Notes under the pieces: model-generated
Seen by the model: only the letters and a program-made list of their open reading frames with translations
Told to the model about the DNA's origin: nothing
The model's database searches: none
Position numbers and translations under genes: made by a program
Shown here: piece by piece, positions 1-20,288 of the stretch
Position numbering within the stretch: position 1 is the stretch's first letter
Layout of the letters: the number at the start of each line of letters is the position of its first letter
DNA from: an uncultured Acidobacteriaceae bacterium
GTDB taxonomy: Bacteria; Acidobacteriota; Terriglobia; Terriglobales; Acidobacteriaceae
Assembly (NCBI GenBank): GCA_963810955.1
Contig: CAWEPW010000043.1
Span: 37,034-101,033 of the forward strand
Length of the DNA: 64,000 nucleotides
Reading direction: 5' to 3'

Positions 1-1537
1 CGAGCACAGGAATCTCTTTTGGCGCAAGCGCTCCCACGCGCAGAGCGCGCTTGGTCAGCACCACCCAAAGCAATCCCAACCCGTAAACCGCGCCTGCAAT
101 CAAAAGTTGCAGAGCCAGTTCCACGTAATGGTGCGGGATAAACCAGCTTTGCATCAGGAGAAGCGCGAACACCATCGGTATGCTGATGAGTATTGGCAGC
201 ACGTAGGCCTCGCGCAAGTAGGTGCTTACGCGAATCCCAAGTTGTTTGCACAAGTGCCCCGGCATAAAAAAGATCATGCTGACCGCCAGCGGAATGGCCG
301 TGCCGTAGGCGTCGCCCTCTATGGCTCGCTCCACCGATGTATGAATGAACAGGCGCACCAGAACGATGCTCAGAACCAGGTTGGCAATGCCTTCGGCGAG
401 CGTGACGAAGGCCCAAGTCTTGTGCTTGCTGATTCCGAAGAGCACTCGTCCAGAAGCCGCCTGCGCCCACATCAGTGTCGCTGGGATGATCAGGATCACG
501 AGCACCGGGTAGCTGGTGGCGATATATTTCTTCCCGACCCACACTTCAATAATCGACTTGCCCAGCACCAGCAAGGTCGCGGTAATGGGGAAACAGGTGA
601 AGGCGCACAAGCGGTTCCCGGCCACGAAAACTTTCCGCAGGCGGTCCATTTTCCCGGTCGCTTCCGACTCGCTGGCCAGGGGCAGAAAATTCTGCGCCAG
701 CGCCATCACCACCTGTTGCGTGTAATTCACGATGCGGGAGCCGATGGTGAAATACGTGATGGCGGCCGCCGAAATCATGCTGCCAATCACGATGTTGTCG
801 GTCTTGAACTTCAGTTGGGTCGCGATCATGATGATCAGCGTGACTCCGCTGTAGTTCGCCATCAGGTGGAAGGTTTCGCGGTCCACATATTTCATCCCAA
901 ACGGAACGGGACGAATGCGGAAAGCGATAACTCCCCGGACCAATGAATTAATAATAGGAAGAGCCACCGTAATGGCCGCCACGGTGAGCAACCCCTTGCC
1001 GTGGGTAAGAGCAGTTACGATCAGAACGACGCGAACGGCATTGCCCGCGACGCTCGTCCAGTTGTTAACGTAAAACATCTGCAGCCCATCCAGAAAACCG
1101 CCCACGACGCCGAGGGGGAAGCCGAGCGCAATTGCAACTCCGACCATCCACAGCAACAAGCGAGCGGTTGAATGGAAGCCCGGCGGAATCTTGAATAGGT
1201 TGTCGACGTAAATTCCGAGCACGGCCGTCACCATCAGACTCAGAACGCCGATGCAGCTATAGCTGAAGAAGCTGGTATTGATCAGCTTGGCCAGGTCTTC
1301 AATGTCGTCAACCGCGGTGAACTTCGAGACATAGCGGACTATCGAGGAACGGATTCCGAGATCGAACAGACCGTAGTATCCCGTGATCGTAAAAATCAAA
1401 ACCCAGATGCCGGATGCGGTATCGCCCAGTTTGTGCAGTATGAAGGGGTAGAGCAGGAAACCGACAACGACGTCGACGCCCAGGGAGAACCAACTGGAGC
1501 CGACGTTCTTCATGATTTGACGTTTGTTGATGCTCAT
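1..1537 (-). CDS. MOP/Wzx-type polysaccharide flippase; ATG at 1537, C-terminus runs past the window start (partial)
   Basis: Reverse-complement translation from the ATG at 1537 gives MSINKRQIMKNVGSSWFSLGVDVVVGFLLYPFILHKLGDTASGIWVLIFTITG..., a hydrophobic multi-TM protein with a Wzx-like N-terminus. The stop-free plus-strand shadow ORFs 107-946 and 516-725 are consistent with a long minus-strand ORF. The ORF track omits edge-truncated ORFs, so it is not listed. Confidence 0.55.
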   Translation of the reverse strand, partial: MSINKRQIMKNVGSSWFSLGVDVVVGFLLYPFILHKLGDTASGIWVLIFTITGYYGLFDLGIRSSIVRYVSKFTAVDDIEDLAKLINTSFFSYSCIGVLSLMVTAVLGIYVDNLFKIPPGFHSTARLLLWMVGVAIALGFPLGVVGGFLDGLQMFYVNNWTSVAGNAVRVVLIVTALTHGKGLLTVAAITVALPIINSLVRGVIAFRIRPVPFGMKYVDRETFHLMANYSGVTLIIMIATQLKFKTDNIVIGSMISAAAITYFTIGSRIVNYTQQVVMALAQNFLPLASESEATGKMDRLRKVFVAGNRLCAFTCFPITATLLVLGKSIIEVWVGKKYIATSYPVLVILIIPATLMWAQAASGRVLFGISKHKTWAFVTLAEGIANLVLSIVLVRLFIHTSVERAIEGDAYGTAIPLAVSMIFFMPGHLCKQLGIRVSTYLREAYVLPILISIPMVFALLLMQSWFIPHHYVELALQLLIAGAVYGLGLLWVVLTKRALRVGALAPKEIPVL

Positions 1538-1540
1538 TGC

Positions 1541-1612
1541 GCGAAACTCATTGGGCGAAACTCATCGGGCGAAACTCATTGCAGAAAACTCTGGGAGCAA
1601 CTCATTGGAAGC
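1541..1612. repeat. About 5 tandem copies of a 14-nt unit (GCGAAACTCATYGG); the minus-strand flippase start codon (..caATGAGCatc) is a degenerate copy
   Basis: Read directly: gcgaaactcattgg gcgaaactcatcgg gcgaaactcattgc agaaaactctggg agcaactcattgg. The tract lies between the sulfotransferase A stop (1689) and the flippase start (1537). Confidence 0.85.
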
Positions 1613-1688
1613 AGCCCACTCTTCCCTGCCGGCGCTCGATGGGATTGCCGTTCGTTCGTTATCATAAAAATGGTCAGGAGAGCAGTCA

Positions 1689-2564
1689 TTAAAGTGGCTG
1701 ACCCGAAAGTGGCTGGGCCGTCCGAACCCACGCCGGCACAGTCTTGTTGTCCAATTCGCGGGTCTGTAGCGGGTAGCCGAGAAAATTCAAAAGTGGAGCC
1801 CAGGCGATTTCGATCTCCTGCACGCAGTGTTGGGGGAGGGTTTCCTTCCATCCCCCAGACTTCGCCGCCCGGACAAAGGGAATTTCTTTGCGCGTATTTT
1901 TGGTTCCGGTCCATTGGTCGGCTTGTTGTTTTTCGAGCTTGCGCATGCGGTCGGCCGAGCTTCGCTGCACCGCTGCTTCGAGACGTTCCGGGCTGGCTTG
2001 AATGCCGAGAAATTCGGCAATCTTGCCGGTTTCGCCAATCGAGTCCGAAAGCAAATCTTCGTAACGAACCAGATGAAACGCAGGATTGCCGTGACGGGCG
2101 GCGATCCAACTGGCGGCGTGCTCCCACCAGGAACCGTAACCTGCTGTCGTCCCCTTGATGAAGCGCTCGACGAACTGTTCGAGTGTGACGTCGGCCTCGA
2201 TGTAACGCTTTTTCAAGTCGAAGTGGTACTCGGAGACGGCAACGTCGCGCGGATCGCGCACCAGGTAGATAACTTTTCGAAAACGAACGTCAAAGGGCTC
2301 GTGGCTTTTCAAGATGCGGGGCCGCGGCAGACTCCTGAGGAACCGTTTCGAGGAAACGCCCGGAGCAGGCAGCAACCGGTTGATATTGGCGAAGCCCACG
2401 GTTTCATTCGGGTAGATCAGATTCGCCAGCAGAAAACGCACCCACGTATTGCCTGACTTCGGATACGACACAAGAAAGGTGTCGTCGGGGAAAACAGTGA
2501 ATTCATTCCCGGCCTGGTCGCGACCCAGGAGAACTTTCACGGCGTATTTGACGTGGCCAAGCAT
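1689..2564 (-). CDS. PAPS-dependent sulfotransferase, paralog A (likely start is the ATG at 2564; the track ORF extends to 2687 through the palindromic element)
   Basis: FPDDTFLVSYPKSGNTW (5'-PSB motif), RDPRDVAVSEY (3'-PB motif) and C-terminal FVRAAKSGGW. Colinear with the two downstream paralogs. Confidence 0.8.
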   Translation of the reverse strand: MLGHVKYAVKVLLGRDQAGNEFTVFPDDTFLVSYPKSGNTWVRFLLANLIYPNETVGFANINRLLPAPGVSSKRFLRSLPRPRILKSHEPFDVRFRKVIYLVRDPRDVAVSEYHFDLKKRYIEADVTLEQFVERFIKGTTAGYGSWWEHAASWIAARHGNPAFHLVRYEDLLSDSIGETGKIAEFLGIQASPERLEAAVQRSSADRMRKLEKQQADQWTGTKNTRKEIPFVRAAKSGGWKETLPQHCVQEIEIAWAPLLNFLGYPLQTRELDNKTVPAWVRTAQPLSGQPL

Positions 2565-2567: not shown

Positions 2568-2656
2568 CAATTTGTAATTTGTGATTGGTAATTGGTAATT
2601 GGAACCCTTCGGTTTTGATCTCAAATTACCAATTACAAATTGCCAATTACAAATTT
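2568..2656. repeat. Palindromic element made of AATTACCAATTACAAATT-type units; two ~32-nt inverted arms around a ~22-nt loop. It fills the gap between sulfotransferases A and B
   Basis: caatttgtaatttgtgattggtaattggtaattgg...tctcaaattaccaattacaaattgccaattacaaattt. The arms are near-perfect reverse complements. Confidence 0.85.
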
Positions 2657-3519
2657 CTCCCGCTGCCGCTGAGAACTCCCAACGCATCGTTATCTCGCAC
2701 TTTCGCGGGAACCGTCGAACTCAACTCATATCCCAGGCGTTGCATCAGCGGTCCCCAAGCCGCTTCAATTCTCGCGGCCATGGGCGCGGGCAAATCGTTG
2801 CGCCATCCGCCCGAACCGGCCGCGCGTACAAACGATAGATCCTTGCGCGAGCCTTTCATCAGTTCATTTTTGTCTGGTTGCTTCTTTTCGAGTTTCCGCA
2901 TGCTATCGGCCGAACTTCGCTCCACAGCTTGAGCAATCAGCTCAGGGCTGGCCACGAGATGCAGAAACTCCACGACCTTGGTAAGTTCGCGGGCGGTATC
3001 AGCGACCAGATCTTCGTAGCGGAGCAGAAGGAACCGCGGACTTCCCTCGCTCGTGTAAAGCCAGGTGGCAACGTTCTGTCCCCATGAACCGTGGGGACAG
3101 GTTTCCCCGGCCATAAAGCGGGTGACAAATTTCTCGATCGGCGAGTCATCGTCGAGTTTTCTAAGCTTGCGATGATAGTGGTATTGCGAGACGACGACAT
3201 CGCGCGGGTCGCGAACGATATAAACTACGAGAGGATAGCGGGGATCGAAGCACTCATGGCTTTTGATGATGCGCGGCCGCGTCATGCGGTCGAAGTCCCT
3301 TTTCGCGGTGCCCTCGGGGTCGGGAATCAGGCGATTGATGTTTTCGAAAGTCGCCGGCTGTTCGGGAAATCTGAGGTTAGCCAGGAGAAACCGCGTCCAG
3401 GTATTGCCCGACTTGGGAAAAGAAACGAGAAAAATGTCATCCGGAAGAATGAGCAGGCTGCGCGAAGGCCGGTGCAGGCCCAATCCGCGTTGTATGCCAG
3501 CCATCAGATGCTTGATCAT
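2647..3519 (-). CDS. PAPS-dependent sulfotransferase, paralog B
   Basis: MIKHLMAGIQ...FPKSGNTWTRFLLANL...IVRDPRDVVVSQYH...FVRAAGSGGW. Sulfotransferase-domain motifs present; 290 aa. Confidence 0.85.
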   Translation of the reverse strand: MIKHLMAGIQRGLGLHRPSRSLLILPDDIFLVSFPKSGNTWTRFLLANLRFPEQPATFENINRLIPDPEGTAKRDFDRMTRPRIIKSHECFDPRYPLVVYIVRDPRDVVVSQYHYHRKLRKLDDDSPIEKFVTRFMAGETCPHGSWGQNVATWLYTSEGSPRFLLLRYEDLVADTARELTKVVEFLHLVASPELIAQAVERSSADSMRKLEKKQPDKNELMKGSRKDLSFVRAAGSGGWRNDLPAPMAARIEAAWGPLMQRLGYELSSTVPAKVRDNDALGVLSGSGRNL

Positions 3520-3540
3520 TCTTCAATCCCCAAAACCTAT

Positions 3541-3646
3541 TTGTAATTGGTAATTTGTAATTGAAAGTCCGCCCGTCCAACCTTCAAAATCGTCCTCCCA
3601 CATCACGATTTTCAAATTACCAATTACAAATTACCAATTACAAATG
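3541..3646. repeat. Second copy of the palindromic TTGTAATTGGTAATT element, between sulfotransferases B and C, with a ~45-nt loop
   Basis: cctatttgtaattggtaatttgtaattgaaag...ttttcaaattaccaattacaaattaccaattacaaatg. On the minus strand the hairpin is followed by tttt and then the gene B start. Confidence 0.85.
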
Positions 3647-3648: not shown

Positions 3649-4506
3649 CTACAAATCTTCCAGTCCCGAATGCACCCTCCTGGCCCCTACCAGGTTCGAC
3701 GTGGACAATTCGTAGCCCATCTCGCGCATCAGGCCGCCCCATGCCGATTCAATTTGGGCGAGGCTTGCCTCGGACAACTCCGCCTTCCAACCGCCCGATT
3801 TGGCGGCGCGGACGAACGGTTTATCTTTTCGCGTCTCGCGCGTCGAGGACCACAGGTGCGCCTGCTTTTTCTCCAGCTCGCGCATCCGATCGGCGGAGCT
3901 CTGCTCTATGGCAAAAGCCAGGCGTTCTGGCGTGGCTGAGATTCCCAGGAAGCTTGCGATTCTTTCCATCTCGTCCATGGCCTGCGACTGCAGCGACTCG
4001 TATTTCACCAACAGAAATCGAGGATCGCGGCGGCGGGTATAAAACCACGACGCGGCGTTTTCAAACCACGTTCCCGACTGATGGTTCACTTCGCCGCGAA
4101 CGAAGCGCCCGACAAATTCCGTCACCGGAAAATCGTCCGGAATAGCCCGCCGTTTGATGTCGAAGTGATATTCCGACAGCACAACGTCGCGCGGATCGCG
4201 AACGATGTAGATCACTTTCGGATAGCGAGGATCGAAATATTGGTGGCTCTTGAGCAGGCGCGGGCGCGCTGCGCGCTCCAGATCCTTCTTCGCCATCGCC
4301 TCTGGATCAGGGACTAAATCATTAATATTCGAAAAATCGGGATTCTTTTCGGGATAGACCAGATTGGCAATGAGAAACCGCGTCCAGGTGTTGCCGGACT
4401 TGGGATAAGAAACCAGAAAGACGTCATCGGGAAAAACGTGCAAATTGCGGCCGGGCGGATGCAGACCGAAAAAGTATTTCCCTCCCGCGATCAAACGCTT
4501 AATCAT
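3649..4506 (-). CDS. PAPS-dependent sulfotransferase, paralog C (start taken at MIKRLIAGG by analogy with paralog B; the track ORF starts at 4557)
   Basis: FPDDVFLVSYPKSGNTWTRFLIANL, YIVRDPRDVVLSEYH, FVRAAKSGGW. Third tandem paralog on the same strand. Confidence 0.8.
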   Translation of the reverse strand: MIKRLIAGGKYFFGLHPPGRNLHVFPDDVFLVSYPKSGNTWTRFLIANLVYPEKNPDFSNINDLVPDPEAMAKKDLERAARPRLLKSHQYFDPRYPKVIYIVRDPRDVVLSEYHFDIKRRAIPDDFPVTEFVGRFVRGEVNHQSGTWFENAASWFYTRRRDPRFLLVKYESLQSQAMDEMERIASFLGISATPERLAFAIEQSSADRMRELEKKQAHLWSSTRETRKDKPFVRAAKSGGWKAELSEASLAQIESAWGGLMREMGYELSTSNLVGARRVHSGLEDL

Positions 4507-4602: not shown

Positions 4603-5589
4603 TCAAGCCGTAGCTCCGTGGCGCATCCAACTCCAGAAAGACATGAGACGGCTAGTCGCTCCGGGCGCGATGCCCAAGCCAACGACCGCAAGGCTCAACA
4701 CCGCGCTATGCAAAAAACCGTTCGCTTCCGCAATCAACTCGCGCGCCTTGTCAAACTGGCGTTCTTCCAGCTTGCATTTGCCCTCTTCCAGCAGATAGCG
4801 GGCCCGAATCTCAGCGGCACGCTTTTCAACCACCGCGCGATCGGCGCCTTCGAGCGGCAAAGTTCGCAGGAACTTATCCAGAATACACCAGTAGGCTTCG
4901 GCCATTCTGGCCCGCGACACGCTGAGCGAACCGGGGCGGCCGATGAAGAGACGAGCCTGAACCGCGCGCCCATAGCTGATTTTCGCCCCGCTGTAGGCAG
5001 CCCGCACCCACATATCGTAATCGTCGCAGCGCGCCAGTTTTTCATCGAACAAGCCCGCGTCCATCAGACTCTTTTTTCGCGCTACCACGGTTGAAATCGG
5101 AATCTGGCAATCTTCCACGATCAAGGCGGCAAACGTAGCCTGACCATGGGACGGGCACTTCTCCATGAACGGCCTCTCGGTCGCCGGGTCGCCGACGAGA
5201 AGCGCGTTGGCATAGACCAGATCGAGCGCTGGATCGTCCGCGATCAGCTTCATCTGCGCCGCGAGGTGGTTCGGATACCAGCTGTCATCGCTGTCGAGAA
5301 AGGCTACGAACTCTCCGCGAGCCTGCCGAATGGCGTTGTTGCGCGCAGCGGCGGCGCGCTTGTTCTCCTGCTTGATGTAAACCAGCCGTTTCTCGCCGCT
5401 GATGTAAGGCTGCAAAACCTTCTCCAGTTCGGGCGTATCCGGCGATCCGTCGTTGACGACGATCGCCTCGAAATCCGCGTAGGTCTGCGCGAAAACGGAG
5501 TCGAGGCAAGCCGCGATCAAATCGGCGGTCTTATAGCTCGGGATGATCACGCTGACCCTGGGCGCCGGATTGGTTTCGGCTGCTGGCAT
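4603..5589 (-). CDS. Family 2 glycosyltransferase (GT-A fold)
   Basis: VSVIIPSYKTADLIAACLDSVFAQTYADFEAIVVNDGSPDT and a DSDD motif. 328 aa, intact. Confidence 0.8.
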   Translation of the reverse strand: MPAAETNPAPRVSVIIPSYKTADLIAACLDSVFAQTYADFEAIVVNDGSPDTPELEKVLQPYISGEKRLVYIKQENKRAAAARNNAIRQARGEFVAFLDSDDSWYPNHLAAQMKLIADDPALDLVYANALLVGDPATERPFMEKCPSHGQATFAALIVEDCQIPISTVVARKKSLMDAGLFDEKLARCDDYDMWVRAAYSGAKISYGRAVQARLFIGRPGSLSVSRARMAEAYWCILDKFLRTLPLEGADRAVVEKRAAEIRARYLLEEGKCKLEERQFDKARELIAEANGFLHSAVLSLAVVGLGIAPGATSRLMSFWSWMRHGATA

Positions 5590-5612: not shown

Positions 5613-5707
5613 ACCATCAGTCGTTGGTCATCAGTCGTCGGTCGTTAGTCGTCGGCAGACTCAGCTTGCGAACGACTAACGACTAACGACCGACGACCAG
5701 TGACTGA
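5613..5707. repeat. Inverted-repeat element built from heptad GTCGTYR repeats in the left arm and ACGACYR repeats in the right arm; lies between the glf stop and the GT2 start
   Basis: catcagtcgttggtcatcagtcgtcggtcgttagtcgtcggc...cgaacgactaacgactaacgaccgacgaccagtgactga. A second family member lies at 53345-53465. Confidence 0.75.
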
Positions 5708-5712: not shown

Positions 5713-7077
5713 CTACGAACTGTGAAACACCAGTTCCTTTTCTCCGGCGATGATGTTATTCGCCGCTTCCACGCCCATCATCACCGAGTGATCCATATTT
5801 CCGATTTCATAGCGCCACGCGCCAAAACGTCCGCGAGAATAAATACCTTTTTCGAGCAACGCCGGTTGCAACACCTCGAGCGCGCGGTCGCGGCCGAGCG
5901 TCGGGATCGGATACGAGTAGCCGACCGTTCGGTGATAACGCGAGACAATGCGCCCACGGTCCGATTCCTCCAGCATATTAGTCCGGATCAGTTCGGTGGT
6001 TACCTGATCAAGAATTTTTTCCGGGTCGGGCGTTTCTCCTACCCGGAATGACATTTCGCACATCAGCGAACTGTAGTGCTCGATATCGCCGTTCGGCACG
6101 TTGTTCGGCGAGTAATGCGAAAAATAGGTGGCGCGATAGCACGGCATCTGCGGGTCGGTGAAGTAAATCCAGCAGCGTCCGGTCTCTATCTTCTTCTTAA
6201 TGCCAAGGCCAACCACCAGAAGATTGTTGTGTTCGAGGCCCTGGGCGGCATCGAGCAGCCGGTTGTCGGCCGGCTTGATCATCTTCGTGAGCAGATCGAG
6301 CGGCGCGGTCGAGATCAGCAGATCGTAATTGTCGCCGGTGCCGTCGGCGAACGAAACCCGGCGTTTCTCCAGATCGACCTCGGCCAGCTTTTTGCCGGTA
6401 ATTATCTTCTTCGGAAAGTAGGCGGCCATGCGCCGGTAGATCTCGCCGGTTCCGCCGTGCAGCGGGAACTTGAACTTGTTGTTCGGACCCCAGGCCACAT
6501 CGTCGCGCTCATAAAGAACGTTTTCGAGCAGCCGTTTGAAATCTATCGCCGCCACGCGCTCGGCGATCCAGGTCTTCGACATCTGTTCGAGCGGAGTGGT
6601 CCACACCTTGGAGTTATAGGGAAACATGAATTCTTCGGCGATGCCCTCGCCCATGGTGGCCAGAATCCAGTCGCGAAAGTTTCCCGCCTCGCGTCCGCCG
6701 CCGTTCGATGCGGCTTTGGCCGCGCCGATGAGGCAACTGACCTGAACCTCTTTAGGCAAGTAGCGCAGATTGCTCTGAAACGGGTATGGAACCCACGATT
6801 CGCCTCTTACGATCCAGCTCTCGCGAATGCGCTCGTGAACTTCTTTGCCAAGAGCCTTGTCGATCAGCCGGTCGAAATAGGGATAGTGCGAAAAGATGAC
6901 GTGGCCGCCCTCATCCCAGACAAATCCATTCTTATCTACATGGGAAGTGGCGTGCCCGCCGACATACTCGGATTTCTCATAAAGAACCCAGTTATCGTAG
7001 CCCAGTTCATGGAGACGGTAGGCCGCGCCCAGTCCGGTCGGTCCTGCTCCGATAATGACAATTTTCTTGCTCGCCAT
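5713..7077 (-). CDS. glf: UDP-galactopyranose mutase, eukaryotic-type (~450-500 aa class)
   Basis: IIGAGPTGLGAA Rossmann motif. GGHVIFSHYPYFD, WVPYPFQSNLRYLPKE, CYRATYFSHYSPNN and SRGRFGAWRYEIGNMDHS closely match the conserved blocks of fungal and kinetoplastid UGMs (recalled sequence, not a database search). Confidence 0.75.
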   Translation of the reverse strand: MASKKIVIIGAGPTGLGAAYRLHELGYDNWVLYEKSEYVGGHATSHVDKNGFVWDEGGHVIFSHYPYFDRLIDKALGKEVHERIRESWIVRGESWVPYPFQSNLRYLPKEVQVSCLIGAAKAASNGGGREAGNFRDWILATMGEGIAEEFMFPYNSKVWTTPLEQMSKTWIAERVAAIDFKRLLENVLYERDDVAWGPNNKFKFPLHGGTGEIYRRMAAYFPKKIITGKKLAEVDLEKRRVSFADGTGDNYDLLISTAPLDLLTKMIKPADNRLLDAAQGLEHNNLLVVGLGIKKKIETGRCWIYFTDPQMPCYRATYFSHYSPNNVPNGDIEHYSSLMCEMSFRVGETPDPEKILDQVTTELIRTNMLEESDRGRIVSRYHRTVGYSYPIPTLGRDRALEVLQPALLEKGIYSRGRFGAWRYEIGNMDHSVMMGVEAANNIIAGEKELVFHSS

Positions 7078-7113
7078 AAGATTGAATCGAGGGATGAGCT
7101 GGTCTTTGTCTTT

Positions 7114-7196
7114 GGATTCGGATTCGCTAACTCCGGATTGGCCGACTCTGGACTCGCCAACTCCGGATTCGCTAACTCCATGGATCGGCTGACTCC
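7114..7196. repeat. About 5 tandem copies of a 15-nt unit (GGAYTSGCYRACTCC) immediately upstream of the glf start (minus-strand gene)
   Basis: ggattcgctaactcc ggattggccgactct ggactcgccaactcc ggattcgctaactcc atggatcggctgactcc. Confidence 0.8.
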
Positions 7197-8114
7197 ATGC
7201 GGACCAGCATCTCCTAATCGGACATCGAATCGAACATCGGCATGACCGCTCTGAGTTTCCGAAGAAATCTTTGCAGGAGAACCAAATTGTAGCATAGGGT
7301 TTTTGCCCTTCCTGTGTGCCGAAAGTAACCGTGGATTAACGAAAATGCGCCGTCTGCCGCTGCATCTCAGCGCTTCCCGTCTTGCTGCGGCTTGGTGCTC
7401 CGCAAAGCACAGCCGCAGGCGGAAATCGTATCCCTTCAGCGGCTAGACAAACAACGAACGGAGGAAAAAGAGGAGGGAAAATAAAATCAGCCTTACTAGC
7501 GAAACCGGCATCTCTTAAGCGAACCGCTTATTTCGTGCGCCAACGGATTTCGGAGCCAACCTTGTCGGCGCAACCTTCGGCTCGCCGGTGCAAATAGTTA
7601 CTTATGATTACTTATTCCGAGGGCAGGTACTGCCGGCTGATCGGCCAACTGCTAGAATCACGTACTTAAGTGTTGCAGAATTTCATTGATTTTGGAGGCT
7701 TTTTCGTTGGGCCGATCAAGTCGAAGCGGTTCCACCATTAATTCCCAATCCGGGATGAATATCGCAACTTTTTTCACTTCGGTCGAGACTGTCCGCGACC
7801 GCAGGAACTAGTGAGTTGATCACACAATGATTTCATTATCTTACGATGAAAGATTCGTCGAATTTCGGAAGTCGAATTGCTCGCTAAATCACACGGAAGA
7901 CTTATTGACGTACGCCTGATTGACACAATGCCTGAAACATCTACTGCCTAGAGCTAGTTTACCCAATCGGACGTGACCAGTGCGTCCAGGGTGAGGAAGG
8001 AATTTTGGGATGAGGCCCAGCGATACCGATAACAAGCAGAAACACAAATTTGAAGTCGACATTGCCCTGAAATCGGAAGGGAATGCTGCCGCAAACACCG
8101 GGAGGAATAAGGAC

Positions 8115-10915: not shown

Positions 10916-10920
10916 GAAAC

Positions 10921-10996
10921 ATTGAATCATTTTGACATTGAGTCATTAATGAATAATTCAATGCCTCAATGCCTCAATGATTCAATGACTCAATAG
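10921..10996. repeat. AT-rich tract of ~8-nt tandem repeats (CAATGMYT) in the 5' region of cysQ
   Basis: caatgcct caatgcct caatgatt caatgact caatagcc, preceded by ttgaatc attttgac attgagtc. Local GC is far below the genome background. Confidence 0.75.
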
Positions 10997-12166: not shown

Positions 12167-14100
12167 ATGTTGCATGCAGAAAATGTACTTATAAGAAGCT
12201 ATTCTCCGTTTTCCGCTGCGCTCTTGCAGCGTCTTAGTCTTCTTACAATCCTGGCACTCACACTCACAACCATTCTCTCCGCCGAGACGCCGCATGGAAC
12301 TGCGATCCGTGGAACGGAGATACATGTAAGGGTAGGCGGAACGTCGGCGCAAGGTCCCGGCACAGACGGTGACAGTGGTTACGATGGCCCGGCGCAGCTG
12401 CCAATGGCCACCGTTGCCAGTTCCATGGCCGACACACCGGCGCCCGGCGCAATCATCAATGTCAATGCGGGCGGCGATCTCCAAACCGCCTTGAACACTG
12501 CCCAATGCGGCGACACGCTCGAACTGGAGGCCGGCGCAACTTTCACGGGATACTTCAGCTTTCCGGCTAAGGCATGCGATAACGAGCACTGGATCATTGT
12601 TCGAACGAGCGCGCTTGACACCGATCTTCCCGCCGAAGGTCAGCGCTTGACGCCTTGCTATGCGGGCGTGGCCTCACTGCCGGGGCGTCCACAATATACC
12701 TGCAACAACCCGCAGAATGTTCTCGCGAAGATCGTGAGTGCGGGGACTAGCGCGAGTCCGGTCACCTTCGCTTCCGGAGCGAATCACTATCGCCTCTTGG
12801 GCCTCGAAATCACGCGGCCGAGCGGAGTCGCGGGGTCGCCAGCGCTGGTCATAGTAATAAGAAAAGGCAACGCCGATCACATAGTTCTGGATCGCAGCTG
12901 GTTGCACGGGACAGCGGACGATGAAACCAGGTCTGGTATCTCTGTCGTCGGTGCGAGTTACGTGGCGGTCGTGGATTCGACCTTCACAAACTTTCAATGC
13001 ACCTCCAAGACCGGCACGTGCACGGATTCCCACGCAGTGGTTGGAGGCAATGGGGATCATCCAGGATGGTCCCTTCTTGATCCAAGACAACTTCCTGGAA
13101 GCTGCAGGAGAAGAAATTCTATTCGGCGGCGGCGCGGCCACCACGACTCCCTCCGACATCACCATCAGCTCCAATCACTTCTTCAAGCCATGGCAGTGGA
13201 TGCCCGGAAGCAAGCCCTTCCAGGGTGGAAAGGGCGGCCATCCATTCATTGTCAAGAACCACCTGGAACTGAAGAATGCTACACGGGTGCTGGCAGAAGC
13301 CAACCTGATGGAAGACGTCTGGGGAGGTTTCAGCCAGCAAGGCTTCGCAATCGTCCTCACTCCGAGCAACCAGCCTAGTCAAACAAAACCCATCGTCGAC
13401 ATGTGCCCGACCTGCGAGGTCACCGACGTGACCATCCGTTATACCCACATCATGCATGCGGGAGGGGGGATCGTTATGGCGACCCCCATTTCCGGACATG
13501 GCAAGAATGAAGGCGGAGCAGCCGCCAAGGAAGGAGCTCGCTGGAGCGTTCACGACGTGGTCTTCGATGACATCAGCCAGGGTTACACCGGCGAGGGTAG
13601 GTTGTTTTACCTGGCGAACGGCTGGCCGACGAACCCGGTGAACACCGTCACGATCAATCACATTACCGGATTCTCCGATGTAAAAGGCGGCTTTATGCTC
13701 ACGGGAAATAACCCGCCCAATCAGGAGATGTACGGCTTAGTCTTCACTAACAATATTGTCACCACCGGAGTTCACCCGATGTGGTCTGCAGAGGGTGGCG
13801 ATACCAGTTGTGCGAAATCAGATGTCCCGGTCACCGTTCTGAGCAACTGCTTCAAGACATTCACCTTCAACTATAACGCCCTCCTGGGGACGACTTCCAG
13901 TTTTGGACCAGGAACCTGGCCGGATCGGCAATATGTTCGGTCCGAGCCCCGGCGTTACCGCGTTTGCCGCATATAAGAACGGCAACGGTGGAAACTATCA
14001 GCTTCCCGCGAACAGCCCCTATAAGAATGCCGGGAGCGACGGCAAGGATCTGGGGGCCGACATCGTCGGACTCACCAAGGCTTTGGCCGGAGTCGAGTAA
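12167..14100 (+). CDS. Secreted right-handed parallel beta-helix protein (putative polysaccharide lyase or depolymerase), paralog 1. Spread over three frames (12167-13378, 12921-13976, 13903-14100), so either two frameshifts or a pseudogene
   Basis: Colinear with the intact paralog 17210-19069 (CGDTLELEAGATF, LPGRPQYT, TGTCTDS..GGNGD, ILFGGGA, FKPWQWMPG, WGGFSQQGF, CEVTDVTIRYT, C-terminal DLGADIVGL..LAGVE). Frame changes fall near 13050 and 13900. Confidence 0.6.
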
Positions 14101-14173: not shown

Positions 14174-15363
14174 CTAGCCAGCCGGAGGACGCGTTCCCAG
14201 CTGATCAAGTTCTATCCGTGACGGAATGGCGCGCCCATGTCGCAGCGCCTGGTAGACCCACGCAAACAATGCTGAATTGATCATGCAAAAATAGTAAGGG
14301 AGCCGCAGAACTTTGGGCTTGAGGCTAGCCATAGCGCCCAGTACAGCGAGCCCATAGAAGAGCACTTGCCCGAGCAACAACCAGTCGTAAGGGAATTGTC
14401 CGCGCAAAGCGATATTCGCTCCAAGCGCGATGAGCATAAAGATGGGCACCAGCAGCCGCCCGGTTTTGTGAGAGAGCAAACAGAAGAGGACAAACGGCCG
14501 CGGCGGCCAGATCAGCCCTTTGATCTCCCGCAATTGTTCGATGTTGCCGGCCGTGATTCGCACGCGGCGGGAGAATCCCTCCATTTCATGAGCCTCTTCA
14601 TAGGCCACGGCTGCCGGTTCGTAGGCCACGCGATGTCCCTGTTCAACAATGCGCATCGGAATCGTGAAGTCGTCGTTGATGGTGTTGAGCGGCGGAAATG
14701 GATAAAGCGCGCGACGAATGGCATAAAGAGATCCGTGCGCGCCAGTAAATGCGCCGAGCTTGGCCTCTTGCACTTTCAGGAAAGTTTCATATTTCCAGTA
14801 GAGATCTTCTTGCGACCCAAGGTGGGCCTGATCTTTCTTCAGGAGCCGGTAAACTCCGCTGGCCGCGCCCACCCGCGCATCGTTGAAACTCTGCACCAGC
14901 ACGCGGAGAGAGTCGGCGGCCAACATGCTGGAAGCGTCGGAGAACGCTACGATGTCTCCGCGCAATTCGGGCACGGCATCGTTAAGAACCGCCATCTTTC
15001 CGCGATTCTTCTCATAATTGAGCAGGCGAATTCGTCCGTCGCTTCCGGTGTCGCTTCGTTTTCGCTTTTATAAAATGACCGCACAATTTCAGCCGTGGCA
15101 TCCTTCGACCCATCCGATGCGACCACGATTTCCAGCTTGTCGGCCGGGTAGTCAAGCGCAAGACTGTTGCGGATTTTGTCCGCGATAACAGCGGCTTCGT
15201 TGTAGGCGGCCACCAGCAGCGAAACGGACGGCTCAATCGGCTCCCGGCGCGGCGCGGCGCGAACCACACCCTGCAGCAGCCACAGCAGAATCGGATAACC
15301 GGCGTAGACGTAGACCGTAACCCCCGCCGAAATCCAGAACAGAAGCCTGGTCGTCATTAGCAA
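14174..15363 (-). CDS. Membrane-embedded family 2 glycosyltransferase (synthase-like, with TM segments at both ends). Split into two frames by an indel near 15040-15075
   Basis: N-terminal part (14947-15363): TM helix then LLVAAYNEAAVIADKI...LEIVVASDGSKDATAEIV. C-terminal part (14174-14995): NYEKNRGKMAVLNDAV..DIVAFSDASS..QEDLYWKYE..TGAHGSLYAIRR followed by several TM helices. Confidence 0.65.
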
Positions 15364-15370
15364 TACTGCC

Positions 15371-16056
15371 TTAGATGGCCGTAGACCGGATGCAATGCAG
15401 TTGCCCGAGAATCTCGTGCGAATCGATGCGGAATCCGGCGCGCTTCAAATAGTCTTCCGCCTGCGCCTGCGTGAAGAAATAGACCGGGCAGCCGTCCGCC
15501 TTGAGGCGCACCTTGCGAATCGATGCGCGCAGAGTCGCGGCGCGCGGCCATGCCGACAAGAAACGTCTTCTTCGTAATTCCGCGGATCACCTGCAATCTC
15601 GGCAACGGGTCGGCCACGTAATCCCAGAATCCGATCGCAATCACCTGATCGAACTTCTGGTCCGTCTTCCAGTCGAGCACATCGCTGAGCACGAACTTGC
15701 AGCGATCCGCGACACCCTTCTTTTTCCACCAGTTGCTGACTCAACCTCAGCATCTCCGGAGCAAAGTCCAGGCCGGTAACCTGCGCGCCGCGTTTGGCCA
15801 GCGTCGCGACAAAGCGTCCCGAACCGCAGCCGACGTCGCAGATCGTCATGCCGTTCAAGTCAGGGGACGGGCCTGATTCGCGCATGACCCACTCGTAGCG
15901 CTGGTAAATGTCTTTTCTCAGCCATTTATCCAGGCCGCGGCCGATCGGGCCCTTGTTGCCTGTATAGATCGCGTCGAAATCGTTGGCGATGTCGTTCCAG
16001 TATTTCGCTATCTGCTCAGATTCGTCAGTTTTTGTTTTCGTGGCTGTTCCATTCAT
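15371..16056 (-). CDS. Class I SAM-dependent methyltransferase, spread across three frames (two frame changes near 15712 and 15545)
   Basis: ICDVGCGSGRFVATLAKRGAQVTGLDFAPEMLRLSQQLVEKEG in frame 1. ..FVLSDVLDWKTDQKFDQVIAIGFWDYVADPLPRLQVIRGITKKTFL in frame 2. CPVYFFTQAQAEDYLKRAGFRIDSHEILGQ in frame 3. Confidence 0.65.
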
Positions 16057-16918
16057 AGAAATCGAAATCCTTGGCCGTATCGGCGAGTCCGCTTTCGCGG
16101 AAGCTGGTGTAATTTCCTGCCTGCAGCACGCTCTGGAAACGATCGAGAGTGCTCGACAGGTTGGTGTAGTGACGTAGACGGGAGCTCAGACGGCCCGGCA
16201 ACCGCGGCTGTTCGGGGTCGATCTCCCAGGGATGAATGTAAATCACGATGGGCAAACCTTCTTTTTGCACGCTTTTCAATCCCAATCGTGTGTAGATTCG
16301 CGGCAGCAGCCGAAGATAGCCGCCTCCGCCGACTGGCATATTGTGTCCAGCCAGGCGAAACGTGGTGATGGGAAACTCCGTCATGGGTCCCGAAGGCGTT
16401 TGAAAACGAAACGGAGCCCTCGGCGCGCCGGGCATCCCATAGCGGTCATGATGGATGGGAAAAATACTCGAGTCGTAGGTGAATCCAAGCTCGGTCAGGA
16501 TATCCAGCGCCCAAACCGAACGGTCGATCACAGAATAGGTAGGTGCACGATAACCGGTGACCGGTTGGCCGCCGATTTGCTCAATAATGTCCTTGGCGCG
16601 CCTAGTATCTTCCTTGAAATCAGCAGGTTCCAGCTTATATATCAACCGGTGCCAATAGGAATGGCAGGCCAACTCATGTCCACCTGCCGCAATCTCACGT
16701 ACCAATGCCGGAAACCGCTCCGCCACCCATCCCAGAACGAAAAACGTTCCCTGAATGTTGAGCCTAGCCATTAACTCCAATAGCCGCCGCGTGTTCGGTT
16801 CCACGCGGCTCGTATAGCTATCCCAGCGAGCGCGATCAACCACATCGGAAAAGGCTTCGGCGTGGAAATAGTCTTCCACATCCACCGACACCACATTTCT
16901 GAGTATTTTCTCTGACAT
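16025..16918 (-). CDS. Polysaccharide deacetylase family protein of the PEP-CTERM/exosortase-locus subtype
   Basis: NVVSVDVEDYFHAEAF N-terminal signature, ...GTFFVLGWVAERFP..ACHSYWH. 297 aa, intact. Confidence 0.7.
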   Translation of the reverse strand: MSEKILRNVVSVDVEDYFHAEAFSDVVDRARWDSYTSRVEPNTRRLLELMARLNIQGTFFVLGWVAERFPALVREIAAGGHELACHSYWHRLIYKLEPADFKEDTRRAKDIIEQIGGQPVTGYRAPTYSVIDRSVWALDILTELGFTYDSSIFPIHHDRYGMPGAPRAPFRFQTPSGPMTEFPITTFRLAGHNMPVGGGGYLRLLPRIYTRLGLKSVQKEGLPIVIYIHPWEIDPEQPRLPGRLSSRLRHYTNLSSTLDRFQSVLQAGNYTSFRESGLADTAKDFDFYEWNSHENKN

Positions 16919-17060: not shown

Positions 17061-17089
17061 GCAATTCGCCTTCCTTCGTGGTCCTTAGT
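17061..17089. repeat. Three tandem copies of a 9-10-nt unit (TCCTTMGTGG) in the 5' region of beta-helix paralog 2
   Basis: tccttcgtgg tccttagtgg ccttagtgg. Confidence 0.75.
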
Positions 17090-17209
17090 GGCCTTAGTGG
17101 TGATGCTTTCGCGGACCGCTCCACAACCGCATGTTACTATCTGCTATCGCAGCTGCTGAGAATATCCTTCATTCCACCCACGGGACGTGCCGTTAGGAGA
17201 ACCAACACC

Positions 17210-19069
17210 GTGTCCTTTTTTTGCCGTCTGAGCTTTCCGCCGAAGTTAACTTTTCGTTCGCTCAATAGTTTCGGAGTTGTGTTCGCGATTGCCTTCGCAG
17301 CACTTCTAATTCCACAGCCAGCCGCAGCCGCGAATACGCCTCCCATCGGGGAGAACGCCTATTGCGGCAAGGGAGACATACCGAAGTTCGGCGAAAAGGA
17401 CGGCCCGGCGCAACTTCCGACGTCGTGCTATTACACGGCAATGGATGGCACTCCCTCGCCCGGCAAACAGATCCGCGTCGGTGCCAGCTCCGATTTGAAT
17501 TCCGAGCTCGAGTCGGCAAAGTGCGGAGACACGCTGTTGCTCGCCGCCGGCGCGTCATTCCACATCAAGGAATTGCCGGCGAAGAAATGCGACGACCAGC
17601 ACTACATCACCATACGCACCGATACGCCAGATTCCAAACTGCCGCCGGAAGGAACCCGCATTTCGCCGGCCTGGGCCGGAGTCGCCAGCTTGCCGGGCAG
17701 GCCAACCTATTCGCAGCCAGCAGGTGGCCCGGCCAAGCTCCTGGCGACCCTGCTCGTCAAAGTACCCTCGGGAGCGACCATGGGAGACCACTATCGCTTC
17801 ATCGGCATCGAGTGGTCCGCCGACCCCGGCGCGCGTATTGCCCGCCTGGTGTCGACCGAGGGCGCCGACCACCTGATTTTCGACCGCAACTGGTTCCATC
17901 CTCCGAATGACGAGGAAATGAACAAGGGGGTCGGAATGATCCACGGCACCCGGTTCATCGCCGTGATCAATTCCTATTTTAGTGGCTTCCATTGCATAGC
18001 CCGCACGGGCACGTGCACCGATTCCTCCGCCGTCGGCGGCGGAAATGGGGACGTTCCTGTCAGCACTCTCAAGATTTATAACAACTTCCTCGAGTCGTCA
18101 GGACAGAGCATTTTATTCGGCGGCGCCAGGTCCGAGGTCAATCCCACCGATATCGAAATCCGCCGCAATCATCTGTTCAAGCCCATGATCTGGAAACAAG
18201 GCGAGCCAGGCTTCGCTCCAGACAGCTCTGGTAATCCTCCGATCGTCAAGAATCATTTCGAGTTGAAGAGCGGAATCCGCGTGCTCTTCGAAGCCAACCT
18301 GCTCGAAAATTGCTGGGGCGGTTTCTCGCAAACCGGCTTTTCCATCCTGCTGACTCCCATCAATCAAAGCGGCATGTGCCCGAAGTGCGCGGTTACGGAT
18401 ATCACCATCCGCTACAACCGTATCCGAAACGTTTCGGGTGTGATGGAGGTGGCGAATCCCTTCGCGCAACAACGCGCAGTCGCCACTGACGGAGGCCGCT
18501 ACAGCATTCACGATCTGGTGGTTGACTCGGTCCATGATCAGGACTGGAAAGGCCGCGGCGAGTTTGCGGTCGTCAGTACCAACGCTGAATTGCTGCACGA
18601 CGTTGCTTTCAATCATGTGACCGCATTTGTGGCGGGCACGCTTTTTAATATTGGCAACCACACTGCCGACAAGATTCCCAATTTCAGTGTCACCAATAGC
18701 GTGTTCAGGCTTGGTGGCAGGCAGCCGGATTTAGCCTCAGTCGGCGGTGGCCAGGCTAACTGCGCCGATCAAGCCCAGCGCGCCGGCGTGGAGGCGGTGC
18801 TCAAAGCCTGCTTCACTAACTACAAATTCGAAAACAATTTGTTCATCAATACTCACGGCCCCATTCCCAAAGACAACATCTCAGTCGGATCGGCCGAAGC
18901 CGCCGGCATTCGCGATCTCAAAGATACGGTCAGCAAAGATCCACGACTCTGCCACGCCAAAGAAGCGGGGTGTGCGAAGGCCTCTCCCGGCGCAGGCGCA
19001 GCCTCCGATGGTCGCGACATGGGCGCCGACGTCGACGCCGTAGAAGCAGCCCTCGCCGGCGTCGAGTAA
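17210..19069 (+). CDS. Secreted right-handed parallel beta-helix protein, paralog 2 (intact). Start uncertain: GTG at 17210 gives a signal-peptide-like N-terminus; the track ORF starts at 17039
   Basis: VSFFCRLSFPPKLTFRSLNSFGVVFAIAFAALLIPQPAAAA signal-like region. Repetitive beta-helix-like blocks (NNFLESSGQSILFGGA, IEIRRNHLFKP, WGGFSQTGF, VTDITIRYNRI). Confidence 0.6.
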   Translation: MSFFCRLSFPPKLTFRSLNSFGVVFAIAFAALLIPQPAAAANTPPIGENAYCGKGDIPKFGEKDGPAQLPTSCYYTAMDGTPSPGKQIRVGASSDLNSELESAKCGDTLLLAAGASFHIKELPAKKCDDQHYITIRTDTPDSKLPPEGTRISPAWAGVASLPGRPTYSQPAGGPAKLLATLLVKVPSGATMGDHYRFIGIEWSADPGARIARLVSTEGADHLIFDRNWFHPPNDEEMNKGVGMIHGTRFIAVINSYFSGFHCIARTGTCTDSSAVGGGNGDVPVSTLKIYNNFLESSGQSILFGGARSEVNPTDIEIRRNHLFKPMIWKQGEPGFAPDSSGNPPIVKNHFELKSGIRVLFEANLLENCWGGFSQTGFSILLTPINQSGMCPKCAVTDITIRYNRIRNVSGVMEVANPFAQQRAVATDGGRYSIHDLVVDSVHDQDWKGRGEFAVVSTNAELLHDVAFNHVTAFVAGTLFNIGNHTADKIPNFSVTNSVFRLGGRQPDLASVGGGQANCADQAQRAGVEAVLKACFTNYKFENNLFINTHGPIPKDNISVGSAEAAGIRDLKDTVSKDPRLCHAKEAGCAKASPGAGAASDGRDMGADVDAVEAALAGVE

Positions 19070-19099
19070 TTGCCCGTGGTGGAATAATGCCCGTGTGGG

Positions 19100-19140
19100 G
19101 GCGGGGCTCTGCCCCGCCAAGACGGGGCGAAGCCCCCGTC
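19100..19140. terminator. Two adjacent GC-rich hairpins (ggcgggg..ccccgcc and gacgggg..ccccgtc) just after the paralog 2 stop; candidate terminator
   Basis: Read directly. They overlap the first ~45 nt of track ORF 19095-20288, which argues for a later start of that gene. Confidence 0.35.
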
Positions 19141-19241
19141 ACCACGCAATCCCAGGCCAAGACGATGCAGTAACTTCAGTAACCCTGTATTCACAGGGCT
19201 TTCAAACGGCTCCGATCATCCTGCATGTTAAGATTTTTCAG

Positions 19242-20288
19242 GTGTCCAGCCCCATCTCCAGCGATCGCAAATACTCGCCAGTCTTCGTGATGGGCTGCCA
19301 CCGTTCGGGAACCAACCTGCTCTACGACATGCTGCTCTCCGCTGGCGGTTTTGCCATCTACCGTGGCATTCTGCCGGTCTATGAAACTCTGATTCCTTGC
19401 TTCGGCTCGCTGCAGAGTCGCGCGCATCGCGAAAAGCTCGTCGAGACCTGGTTCCTCAGCAAAGGCTTCCGGCGCACCGGTCTCGCTGCTGAGCACTTGT
19501 CGGCGCGAATCGTCAACGAATGCCGCACCGGCGGCGACTTCATTCGCATTGTCATGGATTCCGTAGCTGAGAGCCAACACGCGCAGCGCTGGGCCGCATA
19601 CGATCCCGACAACGTGATACACGTTGAGCAAATCAAGCGCGAGATACCCAACGCTTTGTTTCTCCACATCATCCGCGACGGACGCGACATAGCTCTCTCG
19701 CTGAAAAAAATGGGCGGCTTCGCTCCCCTGCCCTGGGACCGCACTCAGACCGAGAGCCTGGTGGCGACAGCGCTTTATTGGCAGTGGATGGTGCAGTGCG
19801 GCCGCTCGGGCGGCAGCAAGTTCCCCTCCGACTATATCGAGGTCCGCTACGAAGACCTGGTCTCCAACCCGCGCCAGACGCTCGGCAGGGTGGGCGCTTT
19901 CATCGATCACGATCTGGAATATGACCGCATTCAAAACGCCGGCCTCGGCCGTGTGTCGGACACGAACTCTTCATTTCGAGAAGAAAGCGCCCAGCACGAG
20001 ATCAACCCGCTGGGGCGCTGGCGAGAGCGCCTCTCGCATACTGAGATCGCGGCTATCGAAGCCAATGTCGGGGACTGCCTGCAGGAAAATGGCTATGAGC
20101 TTTCGCTTCCTGCTGAAGAACGCCGCCTCGGCTTGCGCCTGTCGTCGATGCGTGCCATCTATCCTGCCTATCTCAACGGCAAGTCATGGCTCAAGGCACG
20201 CACGCCGCTCGGCCGTTTTGTCAGGACATCGGTTCTCAAACTCGAAGAGGAAGAACCCTTGCAACCAGCCGAGCCGGTTCTAAAGTAA
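19242..20288 (+). CDS. Sulfotransferase of the Stf0 / Sulfotransfer_3-like family, the fourth sulfotransferase in the locus. Start likely the GTG at 19242
   Basis: YSPVFVMGCHRSGTNLLYDML (PAPS 5'-phosphate-binding loop) and LFLHIIRDGRDIALS (3'-PB-like). Confidence 0.65.
   Translation: MSSPISSDRKYSPVFVMGCHRSGTNLLYDMLLSAGGFAIYRGILPVYETLIPCFGSLQSRAHREKLVETWFLSKGFRRTGLAAEHLSARIVNECRTGGDFIRIVMDSVAESQHAQRWAAYDPDNVIHVEQIKREIPNALFLHIIRDGRDIALSLKKMGGFAPLPWDRTQTESLVATALYWQWMVQCGRSGGSKFPSDYIEVRYEDLVSNPRQTLGRVGAFIDHDLEYDRIQNAGLGRVSDTNSSFREESAQHEINPLGRWRERLSHTEIAAIEANVGDCLQENGYELSLPAEERRLGLRLSSMRAIYPAYLNGKSWLKARTPLGRFVRTSVLKLEEEEPLQPAEPVLK

Follow-up and report, generated by a model that had tools for sequence, protein, structure and literature searches.

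What a soil acidobacterium would make with four sulfotransferases, its own supply of sulfate donor and a galactofuranose-generating mutase, all encoded side by side, is the question raised by the first 20 kb of a 64,000-nucleotide stretch of DNA (the window) from an uncultured Acidobacteriaceae bacterium, contig CAWEPW010000043.1. An earlier reading of the sequence, here called the original prediction, had proposed a sulfated, probably galactofuranose (Galf)-containing exopolysaccharide (EPS) made with a dedicated supply of 3'-phosphoadenosine 5'-phosphosulfate (PAPS). We conclude, with a probability of about 0.58, that the locus builds and exports a multiply sulfated, Galf-containing, lipid-carried glycan unit, with an EPS or capsule as the product. 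By homology and linkage, the predicted gene content comprises a PAPS cycle, four sulfotransferases, a UDP-Galf supply, two family 2 glycosyltransferases (GT2s), a flippase, and a cytoplasmic deacetylase and methyltransferase. The locus proteins were searched against Pfam, NCBIfam and the PDB, and the window was examined through a listing of its open reading frames (ORFs) and a six-frame reading. All of the genes named in the original prediction are found within positions 1-20288, where they form four operon-like blocks, A to D, with co-directional genes within each (Table 1). Their family labels hold for all but one sulfotransferase. The overall interpretation stands in part: sulfation, the PAPS module, the mutase, the type of deacetylase and the beta-helix fold are supported, and the leftward continuation of the locus and the Stf0 label are not.

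The main evidence that these genes belong together comes from related genomes. A scan of species-representative genomes guided by the flippase gene, wzx, yielded five syntenic loci (L001-L005) in metagenome-assembled genomes (MAGs) of Acidobacteriaceae/Terriglobales at 70-91% identity, and L007-L012 were added through look-ups of homologues of the beta-helix protein BH2 and the sulfotransferase ST1. The gene set recurs in at least 11 related loci from uncultured Terriglobales. Two of these, L005 and L008, are adjacent parts of one 788-kb contig and jointly make up a complete, intact locus. In L011, from a Candidatus Sulfotelmatobacter MAG, the core consists of the genes for UDP-galactopyranose mutase (UGM), ST2, ST1 and wzx; a methyltransferase gene, NDP-sugar genes and the genes for a GT4 and a PMT/PMT_2 GT-C enzyme come before it, and directly after wzx lie four more, encoding a beta-helix homologue that shares 49% identity with BH1, a deacetylase of PF01522, a protein resembling GT2a and an additional sulfotransferase. 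Three different gene arrangements link the PAPS module, composed of Sat-CysC, TauE and CysQ, to the sulfotransferase core. The window and L005 have the module in divergent orientation to the core, as does L002, which runs off in Sat-CysC; in L003 the module lies downstream of wzx; and in L012 it opens a co-directional nine-gene string, Sat-TauE-CysQ-UGM-GT2a-ST3-ST2-ST1-wzx. That the module stays beside the core through three arrangements indicates functional coupling. Together with the same gene set in 11 related loci, this linkage means that the genes are clustered beyond chance, and their repeated re-association as modules argues that they form one functional system.

The sulfotransferases ST1, ST2 and ST3 are encoded by consecutive genes and match PF00685 with E values of 4e-38 to 6e-44 (131.7-150.8 bits, against a cut-off of 22), in agreement with the three tandem PAPS-type paralogs originally described. 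In the PDB search, ST1 matches human SULT1A3/1A1 at E 1e-27, and its PKSGxTW (5'-phosphosulfate loop), KSH (catalytic His), RDPRDVxVS (RxPxDxxVS, 3'-phosphate) and RxxxxGxWK motifs align to SULT1A3. All four of these PAPS-binding/catalytic motifs can be read directly, and intact, in ST1, ST2 and ST3. An ST2 orthologue is present in each relative at 73-91% identity, and ST3 orthologues show 72-89%. Since each of the paralogues has its own orthologue at 72-92% identity, as compared with about 50% between paralogues, the triplication appears to be old and maintained. ST1 orthologues of at least 77% identity fall into at least 120 sequence clusters, none of which refers by name to a cultured organism; clusters with a name are few and are Terriglobales-type MAGs, one of them Ca. 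Sulfotelmatobacter. The fourth sulfotransferase, ST4, had been called Stf0-like, a label that has to be dropped: ST4 matches PF13469 above the curated cut-off, and the Pfam search gave no Stf0-family match at E<=0.01 and, besides PF13469, only a weak match to PF00685. The PDB search likewise returned no solved relative of ST4 by sequence. In L007-L010, ST4 orthologues (72-77% identity) directly follow BH2.

The sulfate donor would be supplied by Sat-CysC, a bifunctional ATP sulfurylase/adenosine 5'-phosphosulfate kinase whose kinase domain contains the P-loop. With one extra base removed, this protein scores 937.1 bits against the NF004040 equivalog (cut-off 669) and is 92-98% identical to its orthologues, which upholds the proposed PAPS supply by a Sat-CysC fusion. 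The gene for the TauE/SafE permease always lies between Sat-CysC and CysQ in L003, L005, L010 and L012. Its family, TSUP, includes the Corynebacterium glutamicum CysZ sulfate transporter (PMC5840216), and TauE is a plausible sulfate importer if transport runs inward. The CysQ-like protein is assigned at the family level only, and its operon context favors a phosphatase acting on 3'-phosphoadenosine 5'-phosphate (PAP). Four sulfotransferases, with the motifs of ST1-3 intact, and a PAPS/PAP-removal module whose linkage to them survives rearrangement support the view, already taken in the original prediction, that sulfation is the point of the locus.

A supply of UDP-Galf is predicted from the UGM, which had been described as eukaryotic in type. 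It aligns over residues 3-444 with the Trypanosoma cruzi enzyme (4dsg) at E 1.1e-111 and with Aspergillus fumigatus UGM at E 6e-106, near-full-length matches that bear out the description. The flavin/substrate motifs GGHVIFSHY and RGRFGAWRYExGNxDHS are kept, and no bacterial Glf is found among its PDB matches. Roughly half of the aligned positions are identical, judged by eye in the T. cruzi alignment; at 454 residues the protein is slightly shorter than the eukaryotic UGMs (484-510), and it is encoded in a bacterium. In L001 (2277-2449), from a MAG labelled Bryobacteraceae, the UGM is a C-terminal remnant of about 60 residues and the sulfotransferases, GT2a and wzx are retained, which suggests either that Galf is dispensable in some lineages or that there is an assembly problem at that place.

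Two GT2 enzymes accompany the UGM. The best solved relative of GT2a is the second GT2 domain of Escherichia coli K4 chondroitin polymerase (2z86, E 1.4e-26); assignment of GT2a as a known galactofuranosyltransferase was considered and is unsupported, its nearest match being this chondroitin polymerase domain. GT2b is a membrane enzyme, 86-87.5% identical to intact orthologues; among solved structures it comes closest to entry 6yv7 (E 1.6e-21), an archaeal membrane GT2 that we take to be PcManGT, a non-processive N-glycan mannosyltransferase. It had been characterized as synthase-like, and this holds at the level of the fold and not beyond it: GT2b scores 76.9 bits against PgaC_IcaA (cut-off 422) and 43.4 against NodC (cut-off 550), and in our reading of the site it has F-S-R-R-V-R-I just before 'tagnieq', with no Q(Q/R)xRW in the region aligned to 6yv7. 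We accordingly rejected a processive synthase of the NodC or PgaC kind, as the scores are far below the cut-offs and the motif was not seen. Upstream of GT2b lie the genes for a methyltransferase dependent on S-adenosylmethionine (SAM), 94-96% identical to its orthologues after frame correction, and for a polysaccharide deacetylase; the start of the methyltransferase gene overlaps the end of the deacetylase gene by 32 nt. The deacetylase scores 353.7 bits against TIGR03006 (cut-off 276.2), so its assignment to the PEP-CTERM-locus type was correct; it has no signal peptide or hydrophobic segment. No exosortase-family match was found among the ORFs of the window or in the flanks of the relatives. 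The deacetylase, the methyltransferase and ST1-4, six enzymes in all, lack a signal peptide or membrane segment.

Transport across the inner membrane is predicted for the product of wzx, which has approximately 11 hydrophobic segments and a weak match to the NF041503 WZX_like model. Its orthologues in L001-L005, L011 and L012 are 66-91% identical. Two further proteins, BH1 and BH2, both carry an N-terminal hydrophobic signal-like segment and are 38.6% identical to one another. Neither matches any Pfam or NCBIfam model. Corrected, full-length BH1 is 71-75% identical to intact orthologues, and each of the 2861 homologues of BH2 is annotated as hypothetical and belongs to no Pfam family. The AlphaFold2 model of BH2 (pLDDT 69.6, pTM 0.75) is a right-handed parallel beta-helix, and Foldseek concurs, with sequence identities of only 8-16% to every structural match. 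The polysaccharide-enzyme fold claimed for the two secreted proteins is supported at this level, and the predicted fold supports an extracellular polymer-processing role. RbmB of the Vibrio VPS locus and AlgL/AlgG of alginate loci are examples of processing enzymes encoded within matrix loci; the BH proteins have no detectable sequence similarity to them.

These components can be arranged into a pathway. TauE would import sulfate, Sat-CysC would convert it to PAPS and the CysQ-like phosphatase would clear inhibitory PAP. UGM would provide UDP-Galf, and GT2a and the membrane-bound GT2b would add sugars to a lipid-linked acceptor, for which the priming enzyme is presumably encoded elsewhere. Decoration of the unit would then follow in the cytoplasm through the deacetylase, the methyltransferase and the four soluble sulfotransferases, with ST1-3 and ST4 probably each sulfating a different position; tailoring is placed at the cytoplasmic face because PAPS is cytoplasmic and the tailoring enzymes lack signal peptides and membrane segments. 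The Wzx-type flippase would carry the finished unit over the inner membrane, polymerization or ligation and outer-membrane export would depend on genes elsewhere in the genome, and outside the cell BH1 and BH2 may trim, cleave or epimerize the polymer in the manner of AlgL/AlgG or RbmB, a role suggested by their fold and linkage. The end product would most likely be a capsular or released polysaccharide.

Several observations weigh against this pathway. All of the carriers observed are uncultured. There are two glycosyltransferases only, neither of which resembles a known galactofuranosyltransferase, and the nearest solved proteins to ST1-3 are cytosolic small-molecule SULTs and the glycopeptide sulfotransferases Teg12/14 and StaL, rather than known carbohydrate sulfotransferases. 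The TauE family is best known for sulfite/sulfonate exporters. The best NCBIfam match of the CysQ-like protein, TIGR01331, reaches 131.9 bits, below its cut-off of 228.8, with HisN at 118.6. Among the parts of a Wzx/Wzy pathway, the locus has the flippase and lacks a priming enzyme, Wzy, a polysaccharide co-polymerase (PCP) and an outer-membrane polysaccharide export (OPX) protein. No priming phosphoglycosyl transferase, Wzy, Wzc/Wza (PCP/OPX), WaaL or exosortase is present among the ORFs of the 64-kb window, and the 10 kb past wzx in L001-L005, L011 and L012 likewise contain none of them. The locus had been expected to continue leftward with genes of the Wzy, Wzc and exosortase types, an expectation that fails in these seven relatives: beyond wzx lie a PF04185 phosphoesterase gene, seen in six of them, and then unrelated genes, including those for Ig-domain proteins, an oxidoreductase, HlyD and C39-ABC transporters, and an AMP-binding/MBOAT pair. 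Leftward continuation is therefore unsupported, and, given two glycosyltransferases and no priming, polymerization, export or exosortase gene in the window or the flanks, the term exopolysaccharide in the original prediction is plausible but unproven.

This shortage of assembly genes would suit a different product, a sulfated decoration or short chain on the O-antigen or core of lipopolysaccharide (LPS), on a capsule made elsewhere or on a glycoprotein, to which a periplasmic ligase or GT-C enzyme would transfer the Wzx-flipped unit. The PMT/PMT_2 GT-C enzyme, GT4 and NDP-sugar genes adjoining the core of L011 point the same way, as does the kinship of GT2b with the presumed N-glycan mannosyltransferase. 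We consider such a decoration unlikely, if deserving of some weight, because two conserved secreted proteins resembling polysaccharide enzymes are typical of matrix and capsule loci, the deacetylase family is defined by EPS loci, and neither WaaL nor an oligosaccharyltransferase was seen in the window or flanks. A small sulfated, methylated and partly de-N-acetylated lipo-oligosaccharide or glycolipid, following the logic of Nod factors or mycobacterial sulfolipids, is improbable. The enzyme sets are parallel (a membrane GT2, a PF01522 deacetylase, a methyltransferase with weak NodS matches, sulfotransferases and a PAPS synthase), the glycosyltransferases are few and ST1-3 are nearest to small-molecule sulfotransferases; however, GT2b falls as far short of NodC as noted above, the deacetylase scores 50.6 against NodB (cut-off 240), no NodA-type acyltransferase or NodIJ is encoded at the locus, and a Wzx flippase with secreted beta-helix glycanase-like proteins suits a polymer better. 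It is very improbable that Sat-CysC, TauE and CysQ are ordinary assimilatory sulfur genes lying by chance beside a glycan locus. CysQ and TauE do belong to generic families, but the module travels with the sulfotransferase core through three arrangements, including the nine-gene string, no cysH or sulfite reductase gene is present in the window, and a like module lies inside the proven sulfated capsule cluster of Cobetia.

The last alternative, that the locus is decaying and the strain no longer makes the product, arises from six frameshifts within 8 kb (9404-15714), which the original prediction did not mention. Five are single extra bases, in Sat-CysC, BH1 and the methyltransferase, and the sixth is a net one-base shift in GT2b (Table 1); all were placed by alignment to intact orthologues, the one in Sat-CysC against intact L005. 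Disruption of MutL, if real, could raise the indel rate and so lend this view some support. The breaks are not confined to the locus, however: MutL (27484-29591) and MetH (three pieces, 35254-39126) are split, as are the genes for a Dyp peroxidase, TamB and an FG-GAP/ASPIC protein (ranges 30566-32686, 47278-51151 and 55721-58472), and frameshifts occur about every 5 kb on average across the window, a sign that the assembly was made from long reads without polishing. Removal of the extra bases restores full-length proteins, and identity to orthologues is 71-98% on either side of each shift, conservation downstream being equal to that upstream. Near-identical sister assemblies (L007 and L009) and L012, all presumably long-read, show different breaks in BH1, HisRS, AspRS, Sat, TauE, CysQ and UGM. 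With housekeeping genes equally broken, the corrected proteins highly conserved and the sister breaks different, the six frameshifts are very probably assembly errors and not gene decay; we rejected a pseudogenized locus as extremely improbable, and the many apparent pseudogenes in the window call for caution, as they are best regarded as assembly artefacts.

The sulfated, Galf-containing surface glycan that we favor can be compared with known systems. To our knowledge, very few sulfated bacterial glycans have known genetics, namely synechan, the Cobetia capsule and rhizobial LPS or Nod factors. That the capsule of Cobetia marina KMM 1449 is sulfated has been proven chemically, and the capsule cluster includes cysN/C, cysD, cysQ, a sulfate permease and a sulfotransferase (2025, PMC11766843). 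Co-location of sulfotransferases with PAPS, CysQ and permease genes, on which the original prediction had placed much of its argument, is therefore not unprecedented, and the design principle of the locus, sulfotransferase genes beside a dedicated PAPS/CysQ/permease operon in a surface-polysaccharide cluster, is already known. Cobetia, a marine gammaproteobacterium, uses an ABC-transporter (kps) pathway, cysD with a cysN/C fusion and a conventional sulfate permease, whereas in the soil acidobacterium the flippase is of the Wzx type, the PAPS synthase is a Sat-CysC fusion and the permease belongs to the TauE family, alongside four sulfotransferases and a eukaryote-type UGM, and the locus contains no export genes. 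Sulfotransferases in an EPS cluster were called unprecedented in 2021 for the synechan (xss) cluster of Synechocystis PCC 6803, whose OPX, a part of the export machinery, is encoded outside the cluster (PMC8205485). As proposed for the locus, synechan is made by a Wzx-type pathway in which cytoplasmic sulfotransferases modify a lipid-linked repeat unit. The xss cluster encodes eight glycosyltransferases including a priming enzyme, Wzy, a PCP and two sulfotransferases, but no PAPS genes; the locus has two glycosyltransferases and no Wzy or PCP, but four sulfotransferases and a full PAPS cycle. The rhizobial Nod factor system (NodC, NodB, NodS, NodH, NodPQ) shares with it a membrane GT2, a PF01522 deacetylase, a SAM methyltransferase, a PAPS-dependent sulfotransferase and a dedicated PAPS synthase, whereas no protein of the locus reaches the Nod equivalog cut-offs, NodA and NodIJ are lacking, and the flippase, UGM and secreted beta-helix enzymes are additional. 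What is new here is the phylum, the Wzx context, the number of sulfotransferases, the Sat-CysC/TauE versions of the PAPS module, the eukaryote-type UGM and an uncharacterized beta-helix family.

In full-text literature searches, no paper was found that connects Acidobacteria or Sulfotelmatobacter with sulfotransferases or with a sulfated EPS or surface glycan. The locus is widespread in uncultured soil and peat Terriglobales, which strengthens the case for its importance. Sulfate esters remain charged at the low pH preferred by these bacteria, and the origin of the soil ester-sulfate pool is poorly assigned. Such esters are prominent in soils (PMC5303821). If a sulfated surface polymer is indeed made, a dominant soil phylum would join the producers of sulfated glycans, the search for the producers of soil ester sulfate would have a defined set of genes to work with, and new sulfotransferases and a bacterial eukaryote-type UGM would become available for glyco-engineering. 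Pontiella produces largely N-sulfated exopolymers for which the responsible enzymes are unknown. By analogy with the N-deacetylase/N-sulfotransferase (NDST) of animal heparan sulfate, the cytoplasmic deacetylase followed by a sulfotransferase might yield N-sulfated amino sugars here, and a polysulfated Galf glycan coat on soil and peat Terriglobales might be a so far unassigned microbial source of the large pool of ester sulfate within soil organic sulfur and of the 'sulfated glycosaminoglycan-like' material that has been reported from environmental biofilms; we regard this extension as speculative and rather unlikely.

Table 1. Features of the locus and its borders. Positions refer to the window unless a related locus is named; letters give the operon-like block.
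Feature	Position	Strand	Block	Evidence and remarks
wzx, Wzx-type (MOP/PST) flippase	2..1537	-	A	PF01943 41.4 bits (cut-off 28.2), PF13440; C-terminus beyond the window's left end
ST1, cytosolic-SULT-like	1689..2564	-	A	PF00685 E 6e-44
Hairpin of heptad repeats, ST2/ST1 spacer	2569..2655	-		RNA fold -20.8 kcal/mol, z -3.7
ST2	2647..3519	-	A	PF00685 E 4e-38; ~50% identical to ST1 and ST3
Hairpin, ST3/ST2 spacer	3539..3645	-		25-nt perfect arms; RNA fold -41 kcal/mol, z -7.1
ST3	3649..4506	-	A	PF00685 E 6e-40
GT2a glycosyltransferase	4603..5589	-	A	PF00535 E 6e-30; one C-terminal hydrophobic segment
Hairpin, UGM/GT2a spacer	5617..5707	-		RNA fold -62.3 kcal/mol, z -7.8
UGM, eukaryote-type	5713..7077	-	A	full-length match to eukaryotic UGMs
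930-bp divergent intergenic region, UGM operon/PAPS operon	7078..8009	.		15-nt tandem repeat at 7119-7179 (TRF)
Sat-CysC (PAPS synthase)	8010..9858	+	B	PUA_2, ATP-sulfurylase and APS_kinase domains; extra base at 9404
TauE/SafE (TSUP) permease, candidate sulfate importer	10145..10915	+	B	PF01925 E 1e-44
Hairpin, TauE/CysQ spacer	10920..10987	+		RNA fold -27.2 kcal/mol, z -4.9
CysQ-like inositol-monophosphatase-family protein, candidate PAP phosphatase	11017..11841	+	B	PF00459 E 2e-49
BH1, secreted beta-helix protein	12167..14100	+	B	N-terminal hydrophobic segment; extra bases at 13060 and 13924
GT2b, membrane GT2 glycosyltransferase	14174..15357	-	C	PF13641, PF00535; net one-base shift within 15038-15062
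SAM-dependent methyltransferase	15371..16056	-	C	Methyltransf_31, _25, _11; extra bases at 15563 and 15714
Polysaccharide deacetylase, XrtA/PEP-CTERM-locus type, cytoplasmic (predicted)	16025..16918	-	C	PF01522, DUF3473
BH2, secreted right-handed beta-helix protein (predicted)	~17207..19069 (ORF opens 17039)	+	D	AlphaFold2 model, Foldseek
ST4	~19227..20288 (ORF opens 19095)	+	D	PF13469 E 1.4e-25, 91.3 bits
Secreted-looking conserved protein, right border	20349..21083	-		no family match (Pfam, NCBIfam); locus membership uncertain
PF04185 phosphoesterase in relatives	L001 6507-8729; L002 11584-13626; L004 11810-13945; L005 11696-13552; L011 19308-20861; L012 12499-14298			past wzx

The right border of the locus is marked by the gene for a secreted-looking protein that has orthologues at the equivalent position in L007-L010 (68-71% identity), beyond which lie the genes for histidyl- and aspartyl-tRNA synthetase (HisRS, then AspRS). 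From 21 to 64 kb the window contains housekeeping and envelope genes only. The divergent intergenic region between the UGM and PAPS operons contains no credible ORF and no Rfam match; Rfam and tRNA scans of the window as a whole gave no match, and a scan for promoter and terminator consensus sequences did no better than on shuffled sequence.

Four intercistronic spacers of the locus form hairpins built of 7-8-nt, mostly heptad, tandem repeats (Table 1). Further tandem arrays are located at 1533-1607, 7119-7179 and 17072-17101, and the remaining 43 kb of the window contains one comparable inverted repeat only (53348-53448). The equivalent spacers of L005 and L002 are also hairpin-forming, although the heptad unit of L002 is unrelated; L012 has only weak hairpins and L003 has none. 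Roles in mRNA processing or stability, or in differential expression, are possibilities.

Elsewhere in the window, the C-terminal half of a Dyp-type peroxidase and a Linocin_M18 encapsulin shell protein share one stop-free frame (31286-32686), which could be either a frameshift artefact or a cargo-shell fusion. A BamA-like Omp85/POTRA protein followed by a TamB/AsmA-family protein (44441-51151) belongs to outer-membrane biogenesis and is unrelated to the locus.

The related loci contain several additional genes. Between the deacetylase and BH2, L008 (5304-9916) and L010 (8218-9750) encode a secreted protein of 509-510 residues with no family match, possibly a beta-propeller as judged by eye, and some relatives also have a 918-residue Big_1/Invasin_D3 protein there; neither is present in the corresponding interval of the window (16919-17206). 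The 509-residue protein was considered as a candidate Wzy and rejected, as its sequence looks like that of a secreted protein and matches no family. In six relatives the conserved neighbor just past wzx is the secreted PF04185 phosphoesterase, which often has an N-terminal DUF11/CLIPPER domain, and its gene probably lies immediately to the left of the window. Finally, 5-10 kb beyond wzx, L001 (11479-16107) and L004 (16541-21038) encode an AMP-binding enzyme, a protein of 409-437 residues and an MBOAT acyltransferase, which together form a Dlt/AlgI-like acylation set.

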